17,190 nucleotides of DNA, taken from UHGV virus genome UHGV-0169021. The stretch is one strand, 5' to 3'. The notes beneath the pieces were generated by a model. That model saw only the letters and a list, made by a program, of their open reading frames with translations. It was not told where the DNA came from and did not search any database. Below are positions 2,920 through 16,840 of the stretch, in pieces. Source of the DNA: a virus. A program made the position numbers and the translations under genes. Position 1 is the stretch's first letter; each line of letters begins with the position of its first letter.

Positions 2920-3303
2920 TTAGAAGGGAATTGAATCGTCGTATTCAGGATGATTTTGATGATTGCTACTTTGTTGCTGTTGGCTGTTTCCTGAAGTTGC
3001 AAATCCAATCTTTGCATTCAGTAATTCAAGAGTGATTGATTGGCCATTTTGCCCCTGATAAACATCAACCCTGATGTTTTCTCCGGTAATTTCCACAATG
3101 CCACCTTCAACAAGAACACTACGGTAGTAATCCGCTTGCGCTCCCGGCTTGGCAAATACAACGGCGCTGTAGTTTGTCCATTCTTTCTTTTTTGTCTGGC
3201 GATCGTAATACTGAACGCCAGCACGGATGTTGAATCCGATATTTTCCCCGGCCTGAAACTCTCTTGCGGGTTTGTTTAGTCTTACAGTAATCGAATGTGC
3301 CAT
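2920..3303 (-). CDS. ssb: Phage single-stranded DNA-binding protein (short Ea10-like SSB)
   Basis: 127 aa with an OB-fold-like N-terminal part, a Gln/Ser-rich linker and the acidic SSB tail ...EYDDSIPF; ATG at 3303..3301 overlaps the erf stop (TAATG). Confidence 0.8.
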   Translation of the reverse strand: MAHSITVRLNKPAREFQAGENIGFNIRAGVQYYDRQTKKKEWTNYSAVVFAKPGAQADYYRSVLVEGGIVEITGENIRVDVYQGQNGQSITLELLNAKIGFATSGNSQQQQSSNHQNHPEYDDSIPF

Positions 3304-12495: not shown

Positions 12496-12955
12496 GTTAA
12501 TAAATGGCAATGCCATCAAAATGACAAGCATTGAAATCGCTGAGTTGGTTGGTAAGCGTCATGACAATGTGAAACGTACCATAATAAAAAACGGGATAAA
12601 GCACGATATTAAATATGAATATTATGAAAATAATCTAGGATTCAAAGTTAAGCGAGAGGTTTTTGTTGTTGATGCTGATGTTGCTAACGTGTTTAAGCAT
12701 CAGAGAATAGCATTAAATAGATGTGCTGAAACAATAGCATTAACCACCATCGAACAATTACAAGGAGTTAAATTAATAAGGCAATATCCGGTTTTAGATA
12801 AATACCGCATAGATGGCTATGATCCTGTAAACAATATCGCCTATGAAATAGACGAGGAACAACATTTTGCGCCTCAGCATATGGACGCGGATCGCATTCG
12901 CGAGGAAGAGATAAAATCGGCGTTAGGTTGTAAGTTTGTGCGCATTCGCGTTTAA
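12488..12955 (+). CDS. Fusion protein: Rha-type N-terminal domain plus DUF559 (Vsr-like PD-(D/E)xK) endonuclease-fold domain
   Basis: N-terminus IKMTSIEIAELVGKRHDNVKRTI (Rha-like); C-terminus RQYPVLDKYRIDGYDPVNNIAYEIDEEQHF...DADRIREEEIKSALGCKFVRIRV fits the DUF559 pattern as I recall it. The gene is visibly AT-rich relative to its neighbours. Confidence 0.65.
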   Translation: MNELINGNAIKMTSIEIAELVGKRHDNVKRTIIKNGIKHDIKYEYYENNLGFKVKREVFVVDADVANVFKHQRIALNRCAETIALTTIEQLQGVKLIRQYPVLDKYRIDGYDPVNNIAYEIDEEQHFAPQHMDADRIREEEIKSALGCKFVRIRV

Positions 12956-12986
12956 GCGAATACAATTTGCAAACCGGAGAATAGCA

Positions 12987-13712
12987 ATGAGTAATTTAAT
13001 TTGTTTTGATTCCGTTAAGATGTCCAGTATCGAAATTGCCGAACTGGTAGAAAGCCGCCATAGCAATGTAAAAGTATCCATAGATAGATTGGTGAAACGT
13101 GGAGTTATCAAGCCTCCTGCATTGCAGCACACTAACATAATCAATGATTTAGGTGTTATTACCGGGAGGCGTGATTTCTACGTCTTCGAAGGCGAACAAG
13201 GTAAGCGCGACAGCATTATTGTCGTTGCCCAGTTGTCGCCGGAATTCACCGCTCGTCTTGTTGACCGTTGGCGAGAGCTTGAAGAAGCTGCGGTTAATAT
13301 CCCCAAAACGCTACCGGAAGCGTTGCGCCTTGCTGCTGACCTTGCTGAGCAGAAAATGCAACTGGAAAACCAGCTCGCAATTGCCGCACCTAAAGTTGAG
13401 TTTGCCGATCGCGTTGGCGAGGCCAGCGGAATTTTGATTGGAAACTTTGCAAAGGTTGTTGGAATTGGTCCAAACAAACTGTTTGCGTGGATGCGCGATC
13501 ACAAAATCCTTATTGCTTCAGGTTCCCGGCGCAATGTGCCAATGCAGGAATATATGGATCGCGGCTATTTCACAGTGAAAGAAACAGCGGTCAACACAAA
13601 TCACGGAATACAGATATCGTTCACCACAAAAATCACCGGTCGTGGTCAACAGTGGCTGACCAGAAAGCTGCTCGATAACGGAATGCTGAAAGTAACAGGG
13701 GAGGCTGCTTAA
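12987..13712 (+). CDS. Rha-family phage regulatory protein / antirepressor-like (Rha-N plus KilA-C domain)
   Basis: The track start at 12936 is non-ATG; ATG at 12987 follows GGAGAA. N-terminus MSNLICFDSVKMSSIEIAELVESRHSNV; C-terminal ...RNVPMQEYMDRGYFTVKE... looks KilA-C-like. Confidence 0.7.
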   Translation: MSNLICFDSVKMSSIEIAELVESRHSNVKVSIDRLVKRGVIKPPALQHTNIINDLGVITGRRDFYVFEGEQGKRDSIIVVAQLSPEFTARLVDRWRELEEAAVNIPKTLPEALRLAADLAEQKMQLENQLAIAAPKVEFADRVGEASGILIGNFAKVVGIGPNKLFAWMRDHKILIASGSRRNVPMQEYMDRGYFTVKETAVNTNHGIQISFTTKITGRGQQWLTRKLLDNGMLKVTGEAA

Positions 13713-14361: not shown

Positions 14362-14546
14362 AAGCCACAATTCAAACGATACCAGAGCTTCTTATCCAGA
14401 CACGAGGCAATCAGACCGAAGTGGCGAGGATGCTTTCCTGTGCAAGAGGAACAGTGCTCAAGTACAACCGAGACAGCAAAGGTGAGCGTCACGTAATAGT
14501 TAACGGCGTCCTGATGGTCAAACAGGGCAAAAGGGGAAGGCCATGA
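14358..14546 (+). CDS. ninH: NinH-like small HTH protein
   Basis: 62 aa, ...GNQTEVARMLSCARGTVLKYNRDSKGERHVIVNGVLMV...; ATGA overlaps at both ends. Confidence 0.75.
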   Translation: MKATIQTIPELLIQTRGNQTEVARMLSCARGTVLKYNRDSKGERHVIVNGVLMVKQGKRGRP

Positions 14547-15166
14547 GACTCGAAAGCGTAGCTAAATTTCATTCGCCAAAAAGCCCGATGATGAGCGACT
14601 CACCACGGGCCACGGCTTCTGACTCTCTTTCCGGTACTGATGTGATGGCTGCTATGGGGATGGCGCAATCACAAGCCGGATTCGGAATGGCTGCATTCTG
14701 TGGTAAGCACGAACTCAGCCAGAACGACAAACAAAAGGCTATCAACTATCTGATGCAATTTGCACACAAGGTATCGGGGAAATACCGTGGTGTGGCAAAG
14801 CTCGAAGGAAATACTAAGGCAAAGGTACTGCAAGTGCTCGCAACATTCGCTTATGCGGATTATTGCCGTAGTGCCGCGACGCCGGGCGCAAGATGCAGAG
14901 ATTGCCACGGTACAGGCCGTGCGGTTGATATAGCAAAAACAGAGCAGTGGGGGAGAGTTGTCGAGAAAGAGTGCGGAAGATGCAAAGGCGTCGGCTATTC
15001 AAGGATGCCAGCAAGCGCCGCATATCGCGCTGTAACGATGCTAATCCCAAACCTTACTCAACCCACCTGGTCACGCACTGTTAAGCCGCTGTATGACGCT
15101 CTGGTGGTGCAATGCCACAAAGAAGAGTCAATCGCAGACAACATTTTGAATGCGGTCACACGTTAG
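14543..15166 (+). CDS. Q: Late-gene antiterminator Q (lambda-type)
   Basis: 207 aa; Cys-rich region ...CRDCHGTGRAVDIAKTEQWGRVVEKECGRCKGVGYS...; immediately upstream of the PR' promoter. Confidence 0.85.
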   Translation: MRLESVAKFHSPKSPMMSDSPRATASDSLSGTDVMAAMGMAQSQAGFGMAAFCGKHELSQNDKQKAINYLMQFAHKVSGKYRGVAKLEGNTKAKVLQVLATFAYADYCRSAATPGARCRDCHGTGRAVDIAKTEQWGRVVEKECGRCKGVGYSRMPASAAYRAVTMLIPNLTQPTWSRTVKPLYDALVVQCHKEESIADNILNAVTR

Positions 15167-15208
15167 CAGCATGATTGCCACGGATGGCAACATATTAACG
15201 GCATAATA

Positions 15209-15251
15209 TTGACTTTTTGAATAAAGTTGGGTAAATTTGACCCAAGAATGG
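15209..15251 (+). promoter_or_regulatory. Late promoter PR' with the proximal part of qut
   Basis: TTGACT (15209..15214), 17-nt spacer, TAAATT (15232..15237); downstream -10-like element AGAATG at about +1..+6; the sequence tracks lambda PR' as I recall it up to about +7. Confidence 0.65.
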
Positions 15252-15927
15252 CAGATTTATATCCGTTCACATTCTTTCAGCTTTTACCCACCTCATCTTT
15301 AAGTTCTAAGCGCACTGACATGCGCATCATAAACTCGAGAGCACATAGGAATAGAGCCTGAGAAATATCGCTTTTGGCGACTTCTCTCGTGGTGATATTT
15401 CTATGTCAGCAGGCTCTAATATCTATGTGGTTCGCCTATGTTAAAACGTGAAGATGCATTGAGACTTTTTAATTACAATCCAGATACTGGAATTCTTACA
15501 TGGAAGAATCCACCTCGGTCCTCTAGATTTATCTATGGCGCTGTTGTTGGCTATAAAACAAATGGATATCTGCAGGTAAAACTTTATGGAATGCGGCTAT
15601 ATGTCCATAGAATTGCATGGCTGATGGTTTACAATGATTGGCCAACCGATGTTATTGACCATATTAATGGTGATAGGTCTGATAACCGGATAGCCAATCT
15701 TCGTGTTGTTACTAACACTCAAAACTCATGGAACAGCAAGATGAGGAAAAACAATTCATCTGGTGTGAAGGGGGTGACTTTTAATTCTGCTGCAAACAAG
15801 TGGGTTGGAAGAATTAGAGTTAATGGTAAAAGGATTCATGTAGGGTGTTTTGACGATATCGAGGAGGCTAGAAAGGCAATGGAAAATGCCAGGATAAAAT
15901 ATCATGGTGAATTCTCCAGTATGGGAT
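15252..15927 (+). mobile_element. AT-rich inserted cassette carrying an HNH endonuclease gene within the PR'-tR' leader
   Basis: Lambda-like PR' sequence stops after AGAATGG (15245..15251) and resumes at AGATGGGTTAATTCGC (15928 onward); the intervening roughly 680 bp is AT-rich and flanked by the imperfect direct repeat AGAATGG / AGATGGG. Boundaries approximate. Confidence 0.5.
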
Positions 15928-15929
15928 AG
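15438..15929 (+). CDS. HNH homing-type endonuclease with AP2-like DNA-binding domain
   Basis: 163 aa; HNH motif VIDHINGDRSDNRIANLRVVTNTQNSWN; AP2-like SGVKGVTFNSAANKWVGRIRVNGKRIHVGCFDDIEEARKA. Confidence 0.8.
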   Translation: MLKREDALRLFNYNPDTGILTWKNPPRSSRFIYGAVVGYKTNGYLQVKLYGMRLYVHRIAWLMVYNDWPTDVIDHINGDRSDNRIANLRVVTNTQNSWNSKMRKNNSSGVKGVTFNSAANKWVGRIRVNGKRIHVGCFDDIEEARKAMENARIKYHGEFSSMG

Positions 15930-16060
15930 ATGGGTTAATTCGCTCGTTGTGGTAGTGAGATGAAAAGAGGCGGTGCTTACTACCGATTCCGCCTAGTTGG
16001 TCACTTCGACGTATCGTCTGGAACTCCAACCATCGCAGGCTGAGAGGTCTGCAAAATGCA

Positions 16061-16120
16061 ATCCCGAAACAGTTCGCAGGTAATAGTTAGAGCCTGCATA
16101 ACGGTTTCGGGATTTTTTAT
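16061..16120 (+). terminator. Late leader terminator tR' (end of the 6S-RNA-like leader)
   Basis: 10-bp stem ATCCCGAAAC / GTTTCGGGAT enclosing a smaller hairpin, followed by TTTTTTAT; the 15929..16120 segment resembles the lambda 6S RNA region as I recall it. Confidence 0.75.
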
Positions 16121-16516
16121 ATCTGTGTAACAGGTAAGAGCATTCTCCCTTATGGGTCTTGGCTTAAATGCATTGAGTGCTCTTTCCGTTGTGCTGAATT
16201 AAGCGAATACCGGAAGCAGAACCGGATCACCAAATGCGTACAGGCGTCATCGCCGCCCAGCAACAGCACAACCCAAACTGAGCCGTAGCCACTGGCTATC
16301 CTAGATTCATCAGTGATAGTTATGCTGCGGCCTTCTACACATGACCTTCGTGAAAGCGGGTAGCAAGAGGCTGCGCTAACAACCTCCTGCCGTTTTGCCC
16401 GTGCATATCGGTCACGAACAAATCTGATTACTAAACACAGTAGCCTGGATTTGTTCTATCAGTAATCGACCTTATTCCTAATTAAATAGAGCAAATCCCC
16501 TTATTGGGGGTAAGAC

Positions 16517-16840
16517 ATGAAGATGCCAGAAAAACATGACCTGTTAGCCGCCATTCTCGCGGCAAAGGAACAAGGCATCGGGGCAATCCTTGCGTTTGCA
16601 ATGGCGTACCTTCGCGGCAGATATAATGGCGGTGCGTTTACAAAAACAGTAATCGACGCAACGATGTGCGCCATTATCGCCTGGTTCATTCGTGACCTTC
16701 TCGACTTCGCCGGACTAAGTAGCAACCTCGCTTATATAACGAGCGTGTTCATCGGCTACATCGGTACTGACTCGATTGGTTCGCTTATCAAACGCTTCGC
16801 TGCTAAAAAAGCCGGAGTAGAAGATGGTGGAAATCAATAA
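16517..16840 (+). CDS. S: Holin S (lambda class I holin, dual-start motif)
   Basis: 107 aa, [39 protein letters not shown]...; Met1-Lys2-Met3 dual start as in lambda S107/S105. Confidence 0.9.

Follow-up and report, generated by a model that had tools for sequence, protein, structure and literature searches.

Why should a lambdoid phage carry an endonuclease gene between its late promoter PR' and the terminator tR', an interval in which lambda has no open reading frame (ORF)? This question is raised by the virus genome UHGV-0169021, a stretch of 17,190 nucleotides (referred to as the window in the following) which represents the right arm of a lambdoid prophage; all features described here lie on its + strand. 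PR' is constitutively active in lambda lysogens, where a 194-nt 6S RNA ends at tR'. A reading made from the letters alone (the sequence-only reading) had proposed that an HNH-AP2 endonuclease cassette is inserted into this leader and could be transcribed constitutively in lysogens. Our analysis favours, with a probability of roughly 0.6, a homing-type nuclease cassette that would have been grafted into the late leader and would be transcribed from PR' but gated at the translational level. The putative gate is a conserved RNA structure directly in front of the nuclease gene.

The cassette and its nuclease gene

Downstream of the gene encoding the lambda-type late-gene antiterminator Q (14543-15166; 207 aa, Pfam Antiterm PF03589, E 1.3e-57, 98-99% nucleotide identity to lambda Q) and separated by 43 nt from its stop codon, a promoter scan located PR' at 15209-15237 (TTGACT-17 nt-TAAATT). 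It exhibits 93-100% identity to lambda PR', including the Q-binding region between the hexamers. The start point of transcription was taken from lambda (+1 = A15244). We aligned the window (15150-16260) with lambda (L001), an E. coli prophage having the empty site (L002, OZ039045) and a filled prophage (L003, strain LH85-a, CP100486). All four sequences are collinear through CAA (+2). Thereafter the empty alleles read C-GATGGGTTAATTCGC (the empty lambda leader around +3 is CAACGATGGGTTAATTC), whereas the filled alleles contain 683 nt instead of the C, and GATGGGTTAATTCGC is back at 15929. At the junctions this gives CAA/C/GATGGG in the empty and CAA/GAATGG...GGGATA/GATGGG in the filled state. 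The imported cassette (15246-15928) thus substitutes lambda base +3, with a net gain of 682 nt, and its junctions are identical across all of the 30+ filled loci. L002 is 100% identical to the window over the PR' segment, the 6S leader, the region behind tR' and the S gene.

The right flank (15929-16120) starts with lambda +4 and comprises what is left of the 6S leader, tR' included; it shows 98-100% identity to lambda and to empty-site prophages. It contains the intact intrinsic terminator tR' (16061-16118; fold -28.3 kcal/mol, z -4.6, U6 run at 16113-16118), which is identical to lambda tR'. Promoter, Q-binding region, the hexamer at +1 to +6, the 6S body from +4 and tR' are therefore all kept at 93-100% identity. 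Unlike in lambda, there are 683 nt at +3, different bases from +9 onwards and a leader of about 875 nt with a predicted ORF: tR' is found at +818 to +875 with a 163-codon ORF between it and PR', whereas the lambda leader has 194 nt and no ORF. The RNA predicted from PR' to tR' comprises 875 nt (15244 to the end of the U-run at 16118), close to the approximately 870 nt estimated before. The sequence-only reading had described the promoter directly after Q, a -10-like element downstream of it, an AT-rich segment of about 680 bp and a strong terminator at the end, with flanks matching the lambda leader. We recovered each of these, and the alignment confirmed that a reference lambda-type leader has no ORF at this position.

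The imperfect repeat reported to flank the segment is indeed present, with AGAATGG at 15245-15251 and AGATGGG at 15928-15934. This 7-nt repeat is a junction microhomology (ATGG) and provides no evidence for a transposition-type duplication. The GC content of 0.39-0.40 over 15200-15900, compared to 0.50-0.54 in Q, sets the cassette apart from its surroundings.

Within the cassette, a gene of 163 aa (15438-15929) encodes a protein with an HNH_3 domain (nt 15600-15728, E 5.7e-17) followed by an AP2 domain (nt 15759-15908, E 5e-8), the latter reaching 33.6 bits at a Pfam cutoff of 33.3. Its stop codon TAG (15927-15929) straddles the right junction. Seven residues are invariant across 41 homologues (H57, D74, H75, N77, N83, N87, N99). 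The AlphaFold2 model is confident (pLDDT 94.5), and its C-terminal domain superimposes on the plant AP2/ERF fold with an rmsd of 1.3 A over 51 residues (1gcc; Foldseek returned the AP2 domains of AtERF1 and TEM1). The N-terminal part resembles I-PpoI weakly, and a sequence search of the PDB with the whole protein returned a plant AP2 protein alone. PMC10448857 (citing Magnani 2004) recognises the HNH-AP2 architecture as a family of homing endonuclease genes (HEGs).

Fourteen of the 17 distinct alleles are intact. The three broken ones, from IMG/VR, carry a 1-nt frameshift (L023/L024) or an internal ORF deletion of about 320 nt (L028, L029). The segregating changes in the gene comprise 18 synonymous and 8 non-synonymous ones, and dN/dS was 0.09 against the 86% homologue and 0.08 against the 74% homologue. 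Judged by these substitution patterns, the gene is under purifying selection but is lost now and then.

An intron of group I or II carrying the ORF was rejected as an explanation of the insert. The intron models of Rfam gave no match up to E = 10 in the region 15150-16200, and there is no room for an intron 3' core because the stop codon abuts the right junction. By a simple consensus scan, neither a sigma70-like site in 15238-15437 nor a + strand terminator-like site inside the cassette was detected; the only promoter-like site, at 15459-15488, lies within the ORF and was discarded as an internal promoter. The cassette thus lacks the promoter and terminator of its own that characterize a moron. 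Nor is an intrinsic terminator predicted for the stretch from PR' to the ORF, and transcription from PR' in lysogens, as postulated in the sequence-only reading, is therefore plausible. Taken by its sequence features, the cassette is probably a free-standing HEG-type gene for a predicted nuclease in an unusual regulatory niche.

A structured RNA in front of the nuclease gene

The earlier description as an endonuclease cassette holds with respect to the intact HNH-AP2 ORF, but the cassette is not a bare gene. Positions 15309-15431 form a conserved structured RNA leader of 123 nt (126.7 bits with our covariance model; minimum free energy -49.5 kcal/mol, z -5.0). It begins with hairpin a (15310-14/15321-25), whose loop pairs with an internal loop as pseudoknot b (15315-20/15404-09), while pseudoknot c (15336-41/15384-89) is a pairing with the apical loop. 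The long helix consists of a basal part termed d-ext (15342-52/15419-29), a middle part d (15353-60/15410-17) and an upper part e (15361-71/15392-402). Thereby d-ext takes in the Shine-Dalgarno (SD)-like GUGG at 15427-30. The motif UGGCGA (15375-80) is invariant, and the invariant unpaired or loop bases of the whole family include UGGCGAC and GAGAA.

The six helices were written from the sequence and subsequently tested in an alignment (A3) comprising 27 distinct copies. Pairing was found in 98.5% of the cells, compared to 32-48% if the partners were slid by 1-3 columns. Seven pairs exhibited double changes, three of them in pseudoknot c, and the observed covariation was reached by none of 500 shuffles. 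RNAalifold independently recovered helices a, d-ext, d and e, and single-sequence folding of the window copy yielded the same helices. A covariance model (R1) was built from the nested helices, and its matches extended the set to 73 distinct sequences (A5); here 18 of the 35 nested pairs covary in an alignment that was itself fitted to the model. In a separate script, pseudoknot b kept at least five complementary bases in every one of the 73 copies. It occurs in four main variants (CUGACR/YGUCAG, UCGCA/UGCGA, UCUCAC/GUGAGA and UCACAC/GUGUGA), and combinations across these types match in 2%. At least six sequence variants of pseudoknot c were found in the same set. The frequent G.U pairs are compatible with the + strand alone. 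Furthermore, in the Xenorhabdus copies an AGGA Shine-Dalgarno sequence likewise lies inside the basal helix. On this comparative evidence, 15309-15431 represents a covariation-supported, double-pseudoknotted RNA whose basal helix would contain the SD region. Since the basal helix pairs with the SD region, constitutive transcription from PR' need not result in constitutive production of the nuclease.

Inspection by eye revealed no LexA box, boxA, IHF site or sigma70 promoter conserved in the element across the subtypes. In Rfam 15 the window copy obtained only junk matches at E 3-4, and copies of the Rha and Xenorhabdus types obtained none. We found no account of the cassette or the RNA in the literature on lambdoid-phage HNH genes, on HNH-AP2 endonucleases or on structured RNA near rha and antirepressor genes.

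A conserved-block pattern detected 18 loci in species-representative genomes, all of them in Xenorhabdus, where a single genome may contain as many as three copies, and more in IMG/VR. In most of these Xenorhabdus and IMG/VR loci the block precedes genes quite unlike HNH. Model R1 added diverged copies of 50-80 bits in E. coli and in Salmonella-type phages, so that the family now comprises 178 phage records and 916 of 5426 E. coli genomes (about 17%). No annotation was present at the match in any of 12 sampled E. coli copies (RefSeq). The usual order is Rz, an intrinsic terminator, the element and a cargo gene, as in phi80, HK106, Sf101, CUS-3, epsilon34, SPN3UB and 74 Stx2a phages. Diverged copies between Rz/terminator and Rha, KilA-N or T5orf172-like genes were located at 4665-4788 of L006, 4703-4826 of L007 and 5703-5830 of L003, and further phage copies at 1525-1645 of both phi80 (L096) and HK106 (L097). 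The cargo families include Phage_pRha, KilA-N, ANT/KilAC, P22_AR_N, MUG113/T5orf172, HNH_3 and one Acb2/Tad1-hairpin protein, and the subtype of the element and the type of cargo assort independently. The RNA leader is a portable 5' module, and its family stands ahead of many different accessory genes that follow the lysis genes in lambdoid phages.

Some cargo genes deserve separate mention. In Xenorhabdus beddingii (L043, 1276-1518) the cargo is an 80-aa protein with an Acb2/Tad1 hairpin domain (E 4e-14), by this domain a candidate anti-CBASS/anti-Thoeris sponge. MUG113/T5orf172 (GIY-YIG-like) genes occupy the cargo position in HK106 (gp64, L097 1654-2142) and in many IMG/VR loci (e.g. L015, L121), and would be a second putative homing-nuclease family having the RNA leader. 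T5orf172 and HNH-AP2 proteins are both treated as homing endonucleases in PMC10448857. HNH_3 genes without a Pfam AP2 match were seen as cargo in L171 and L213. Upstream of Q, between the NinF gene and the DUF1364/RusA/NinH genes, the window contains an ORF (12936-13712) that corresponds to a gene of L003, a near-identical prophage, with the annotation KilAC-domain antirepressor; no copy of the RNA leader in front of this ORF was detected with the covariance model.

Phages with the cassette at PR' have a second, Rha-type RNA copy about 2.4 kb downstream, behind the lysis genes, which in the case of the window falls past its end. By its score, the window copy is much nearer to the Xenorhabdus copies (113-149 bits) than to the resident E. 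coli Rha-type copies (about 58 bits). Because of this proximity to the Xenorhabdus copies, and because of the low GC content, these comparisons point to an import of the cassette from another lineage.

Occurrence, linkage to Q and the pause region

Among 5426 complete E. coli genomes, 16 contain the cassette, always at the same site. Its flanks matched in 1383 genomes, of which about 1370 have no insert, so that the cassette occupies about 1% of the lambda-type late regions. Seventeen IMG/VR contigs have the same architecture, and a pattern scan of metagenomes added four contigs with E. coli-type copies; the other 14 metagenome matches were discarded as chance hits in GC-rich DNA. Recurrence of the same insert at the same site in all these collections excludes a chance artefact. 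No copy was present in the 50,697 phage records searched, and a scan for the HNH protein gave no match in the species-representative genomes, because the lineage is too sporadic for a set with one genome per species.

HNH homologues with 86% (L030), 74% (L031), 66% (L032/33), 62% (L034, Xenorhabdus bovienii) and 56% (L216) identity all lie 250-270 nt past a PF03589 Q gene and directly behind the RNA element; a block of about 125 nt is shared between the spacers of L030-L034 and window 15309-15431. At four of these loci the Q proteins are 42-51% identical to lambda Q, and the HNH proteins there are 62-74% identical to the window protein. The 56% homologue has the order Q, PR', element (101.6 bits) and HNH. 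Neither Q nor the RNA element is present at the locus of a 48% homologue. Two layouts occur: element and HNH gene stand before tR' in the window, L030 and L031, and after tR', with a further terminator behind them, in L034 and L216. As the unit is found behind Q genes of at least four further, divergent Q lineages and sometimes after tR', it is tied to late leaders generally and not to lambda 6S.

Several observations concern the surroundings of these loci. In L030 (1356-1400), the lambda-like leader past the HNH stop codon lacks GGTTAATTCGCTCGT, the original pause region, a loss consistent with decay of a sequence that is no longer promoter-proximal. A tRNA gene (Rfam tRNA, 57.6 bits) directly follows the HNH stop codon of Xenorhabdus bovienii (L034, 1940-2012). 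A terminator-end motif, TTTTT(C)ATATCTGC, recurs in L216 (600-650 and 1270-1310), L034 (1200-1250) and the window (16113-16125). It flanks the unit of element and HNH gene on both sides where this unit is located after tR' and is also found at lambda tR'; it may be a preferred recombination joint. Some lambda-type prophages have an extra segment of about 420 nt between tR' and S (L004 1913-2331; L005, L013, L014), whether or not the HNH cassette is present, and without a convincing + strand ORF. The first downstream late gene of the window encodes the S holin (16517-16840; Pfam Phage_holin_3_1, E 2.4e-30).

In the first eight transcribed positions the leader retains much of the lambda pattern. 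The -10-like, sigma70 pause-inducing hexamer at +1 to +6 (15244-15249) is AAGAAT instead of lambda AACGAT, with A+2 and T+6 kept. It is nearer to the consensus than that of lambda, followed by GG at +7/+8, and its GA variant is confined to alleles with the cassette or a deletion remnant (L003, L005, L006, L007, L030). By analogy with established lambda biology (PMC5001585), AAGAAT would be expected to act in pausing. From +9 to +65, including the expected pause site, the transcript is supplied by a variable 5' spacer of the cassette (57 nt, 15252-15308), which is about 80% identical to the spacer of L030 and only marginally similar to the early transcribed regions of other Q-type leaders (shuffle p 0.0035 and 0.018 among 12 comparisons). 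A hairpin in this spacer was rejected as a terminator: it is AU-rich, its fold is weak (z -0.9), and no terminator is predicted. The sequence-only reading had noticed that the region around +16/+17 is now insert sequence. In fact the elemental pause bases C+16/G+17 of lambda are A/U in the window (15259-15260).

Leaders of the P22 and HK022 types likewise part from lambda at +9, indicating that sequence variation past +8 is tolerated. Since the hexamer is kept as well, the loss of the lambda bases from +9 onward is by itself no evidence for a broken Q utilization site (qut). Q may well work normally on this template, as is suggested by the fact that the arrangement persists together with intact late genes.

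In three E. coli genomes, PR' is directly followed by no more than the initial 115 nt of the insert, and the HNH gene is missing. The remnant leaders of RMDEC465 and FDAARGOS_943 match the 5' half of the RNA model alone (33 bits) and end exactly at AGAGCCTG, followed by CATAACGGTTTCGGGATTTTTT. In the window AGAGCCTG occurs twice, first as the 5' strand of helix d (15353-15360) and again at 16089-16096, and a deletion between these two copies exactly reproduces the remnant leaders. As they retain the 5' half of the RNA up to the repeat, the leaders of RMDEC465 and FDAARGOS_943 are deletion derivatives and the state with the cassette is ancestral. We had considered the 115-nt leader as an independent ancestral 'A-type' leader, but this was rejected when the covariance model showed a truncated 5' half of the RNA element. 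In the remnants L006 (3001-3145) and L007 (3001-3184) the 3' half of tR', tRNA-Asn, tRNA-Thr and a class II holin follow. A new 7-bp hairpin (CUCGAGA/UUUCGGG) with a U-run is present in the remnant leaders and may replace tR'. The FDAARGOS_943 remnant (L007, about 3065-3110) also contains a 46-nt GC-rich hairpin insertion (CCCGCCCTGTCGGGCGAGGG...TTTTT), which may be an added terminator.

Weighing of the explanations

In the explanation we favour, the late control region would be a recombinant, in which an AT-rich module of 683 nt, derived from a different lineage of phages, was spliced in after the first bases of the PR' transcript. The module would have brought along the 57-nt spacer with the pause region, the 123-nt RNA leader pairing with the ribosome-binding site and the intact HNH-AP2 gene. 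RNA polymerase starting at PR' would pause at the kept -10-like hexamer. Without Q, an RNA of about 875 nt ending at tR' would be formed in place of the 194-nt 6S RNA, and the nuclease would be translated from it just at the low or conditional level permitted by the folded leader. With Q, transcription would run on into the lysis genes as normal. Most likely, the nuclease would act on DNA of related phages without the cassette and thereby spread itself or exclude competitors.

Several points weigh against this explanation. Everything concerning activity is inferred from sequence. The SNP states of the flanks are common to filled and empty alleles up to 4 nt (left) and 33 nt (right) from the junctions, and such shared haplotypes fit homing and ordinary phage recombination equally; the diversity of the insert (98.4-100%) is not below that of its flanks. 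The long-term linkage to Q together with strong purifying selection could mean a non-selfish function beneficial for the phage. A substantial pause needs sigma70 binding as well as the elemental pause sequence (Bird et al., PMC5001585); as C+16/G+17 of lambda are replaced, Q loading may be altered and the position or strength of the pause may differ. The SD-like GUGG is weak, and the assignment of the start codon therefore rests on the RefSeq annotation and the alignment of homologues. Finally, a simple occluding hairpin would suffice for translational control, and two conserved pseudoknots suggest a further role of the RNA.

Simple homing or insertion would explain part of the data. The product of a stand-alone HNH gene would have cut the lambda 6S leader, with the gene being copied in at ATGG, the upstream 190 nt being its own untranslated region and the repeat marking the target. 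That the cassette is either present or absent at one precise site between near-identical flanks (100% in L002), with ATGG microhomology at both junctions, is in accordance with such an event. We nevertheless regard it as unlikely, because the upstream 123 nt belong to a large RNA family that also stands ahead of unrelated genes. The unit of RNA and HNH gene is moreover located behind Q genes that cannot be aligned with lambda at the DNA level, and sometimes after tR', so that lambda 6S is not the common target, and the change from CG to GA in the pause hexamer at the left junction is unexpected for a clean insertion at ATGG. Alternatively, the gene might be a domesticated accessory gene, its product cutting superinfecting relatives or acting as an AP2 DNA-binding regulator, that is kept in the PR' leader for transcription in lysogens. 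A dN/dS of 0.08-0.09, the synteny with Q across lineages whose Q proteins are 42-51% identical to lambda Q, and the constitutive activity of PR' in lambda lysogens would be in line with domestication, as would the Rha, KilA-N and Ant regulators and the Acb2/Tad1-like anti-defence gene which occupy the leader slot elsewhere. Yet domestication seems doubtful to us for a cassette that is present in about 1% of lambda-type late regions, with 3 of 17 distinct alleles being pseudogenes and with deletion derivatives, which is the invade-and-decay pattern to be expected of a selfish nuclease gene; in the two lineages having the cassette after tR', no expression in lysogens is expected.

The two remaining alternatives concern the 123-nt block itself. 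That it works as DNA, i.e. as a recombination linker or protein-binding site with the helices being mere inverted repeats, is very improbable. It does join many different upstream and downstream genes, with subtype and cargo assorting independently, and nuclease genes have been found at the boundaries of genetic exchange between phages (PMC10448857). However, five helices, two of which cross others, keep their pairing by compensatory changes in four to at least six variants each; on the opposite strand the frequent G.U pairs would appear as A.C mismatches, and the position just 5' of start codons with the SD in a helix is typical of an mRNA leader. A role as a riboswitch-like sensor (of metabolites, proteins or temperature), or as an element from which self-cleavage or RNase processing frees a translatable mRNA, would account for a compact double pseudoknot with invariant UGGCGAC and GAGAA from E. 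coli to Xenorhabdus, which exceeds the needs of occlusion. This is an unlikely possibility, against which it speaks that no Rfam riboswitch or ribozyme model matched and that an alternative pairing of the 5' strand of e with the invariant GGCGAC, inspected by eye, is not kept across the subtypes.

Comparison with known systems places the favoured explanation, a translationally gated cassette in the late leader, between several precedents. Endonuclease genes of the T4 seg/mob type and those encoded by introns have ribosome-binding sites sequestered in hairpins of read-through transcripts. In the window, as in the T4 seg/mob case, the SD of a nuclease gene is hidden within the RNA structure of a longer transcript initiated elsewhere; unlike there, the structure is a 123-nt double pseudoknot common to non-nuclease genes, and the consensus scan of the cassette found no internal promoter that would free the SD. 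StxS of Stx phages and lambda 6S are short non-coding PR' transcripts. With them the window shares the use of the PR'-tR' interval of a prophage as a niche for expression in lysogens, but its PR' transcript would be an mRNA. The accessory ('moron') slot between lysis and terminase genes of lambdoid phages (phi80, P22 rha) has the same RNA leader family ahead of phi80 rha and of a T5orf172-like gene in HK106, and also ahead of accessory genes of Sf101, CUS-3, epsilon34 and Stx2a phages. Unlike in that slot, the unit of leader and cargo in the window lies in the PR' leader instead of behind the lysis genes and has no intrinsic terminator before the element. The HNH-AP2 or 'IPA-HNH' HEGs (Magnani et al. 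2004; discussed in PMC10448857) likewise have HNH_3 followed by AP2, are small (163 aa here), intergenic and of phage origin, and are AT-rich, sporadic at a precise site and at times pseudogenised. In contrast to them, the window gene lies inside a Q-dependent late leader RNA and not between two protein genes, and the pseudoknotted RNA leader is always present.

The cassette puts a nuclease gene in the one late-region interval that is transcribed in lysogens, suggesting a route by which a prophage might attack or invade incoming relatives. It also offers a natural test of which initial transcribed bases lambda Q needs, as all bases from +9 are swapped and 683 nt are added in an arrangement that lasts in dozens of prophages with intact downstream late genes. 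Going further, the leader may be a new class of regulatory RNA, i.e. a switch sensing a ligand or factor or a processing ribozyme, which gates the accessory-gene slot of lambdoid phages and turns the PR' leader into a conditionally translated nuclease mRNA; we put this forward as speculative and rather unlikely. If true, the leader would link the lysogen state to the attack on, or invasion of, related phages, and the gated slot would comprise antirepressor-like regulators, anti-defence sponges of the Acb2/Tad1 type and homing nucleases of the HNH and T5orf172 types. This RNA family, which has no Rfam entry, is carried by about 17% of the complete E. coli genomes and by such well-studied phages as phi80, Sf101, CUS-3, epsilon34 and the Stx2a phages. 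Its cargo includes regulators, anti-defence genes and two nuclease families, so that its function would bear on the control of accessory genes by temperate phages and on the exchange of these genes.

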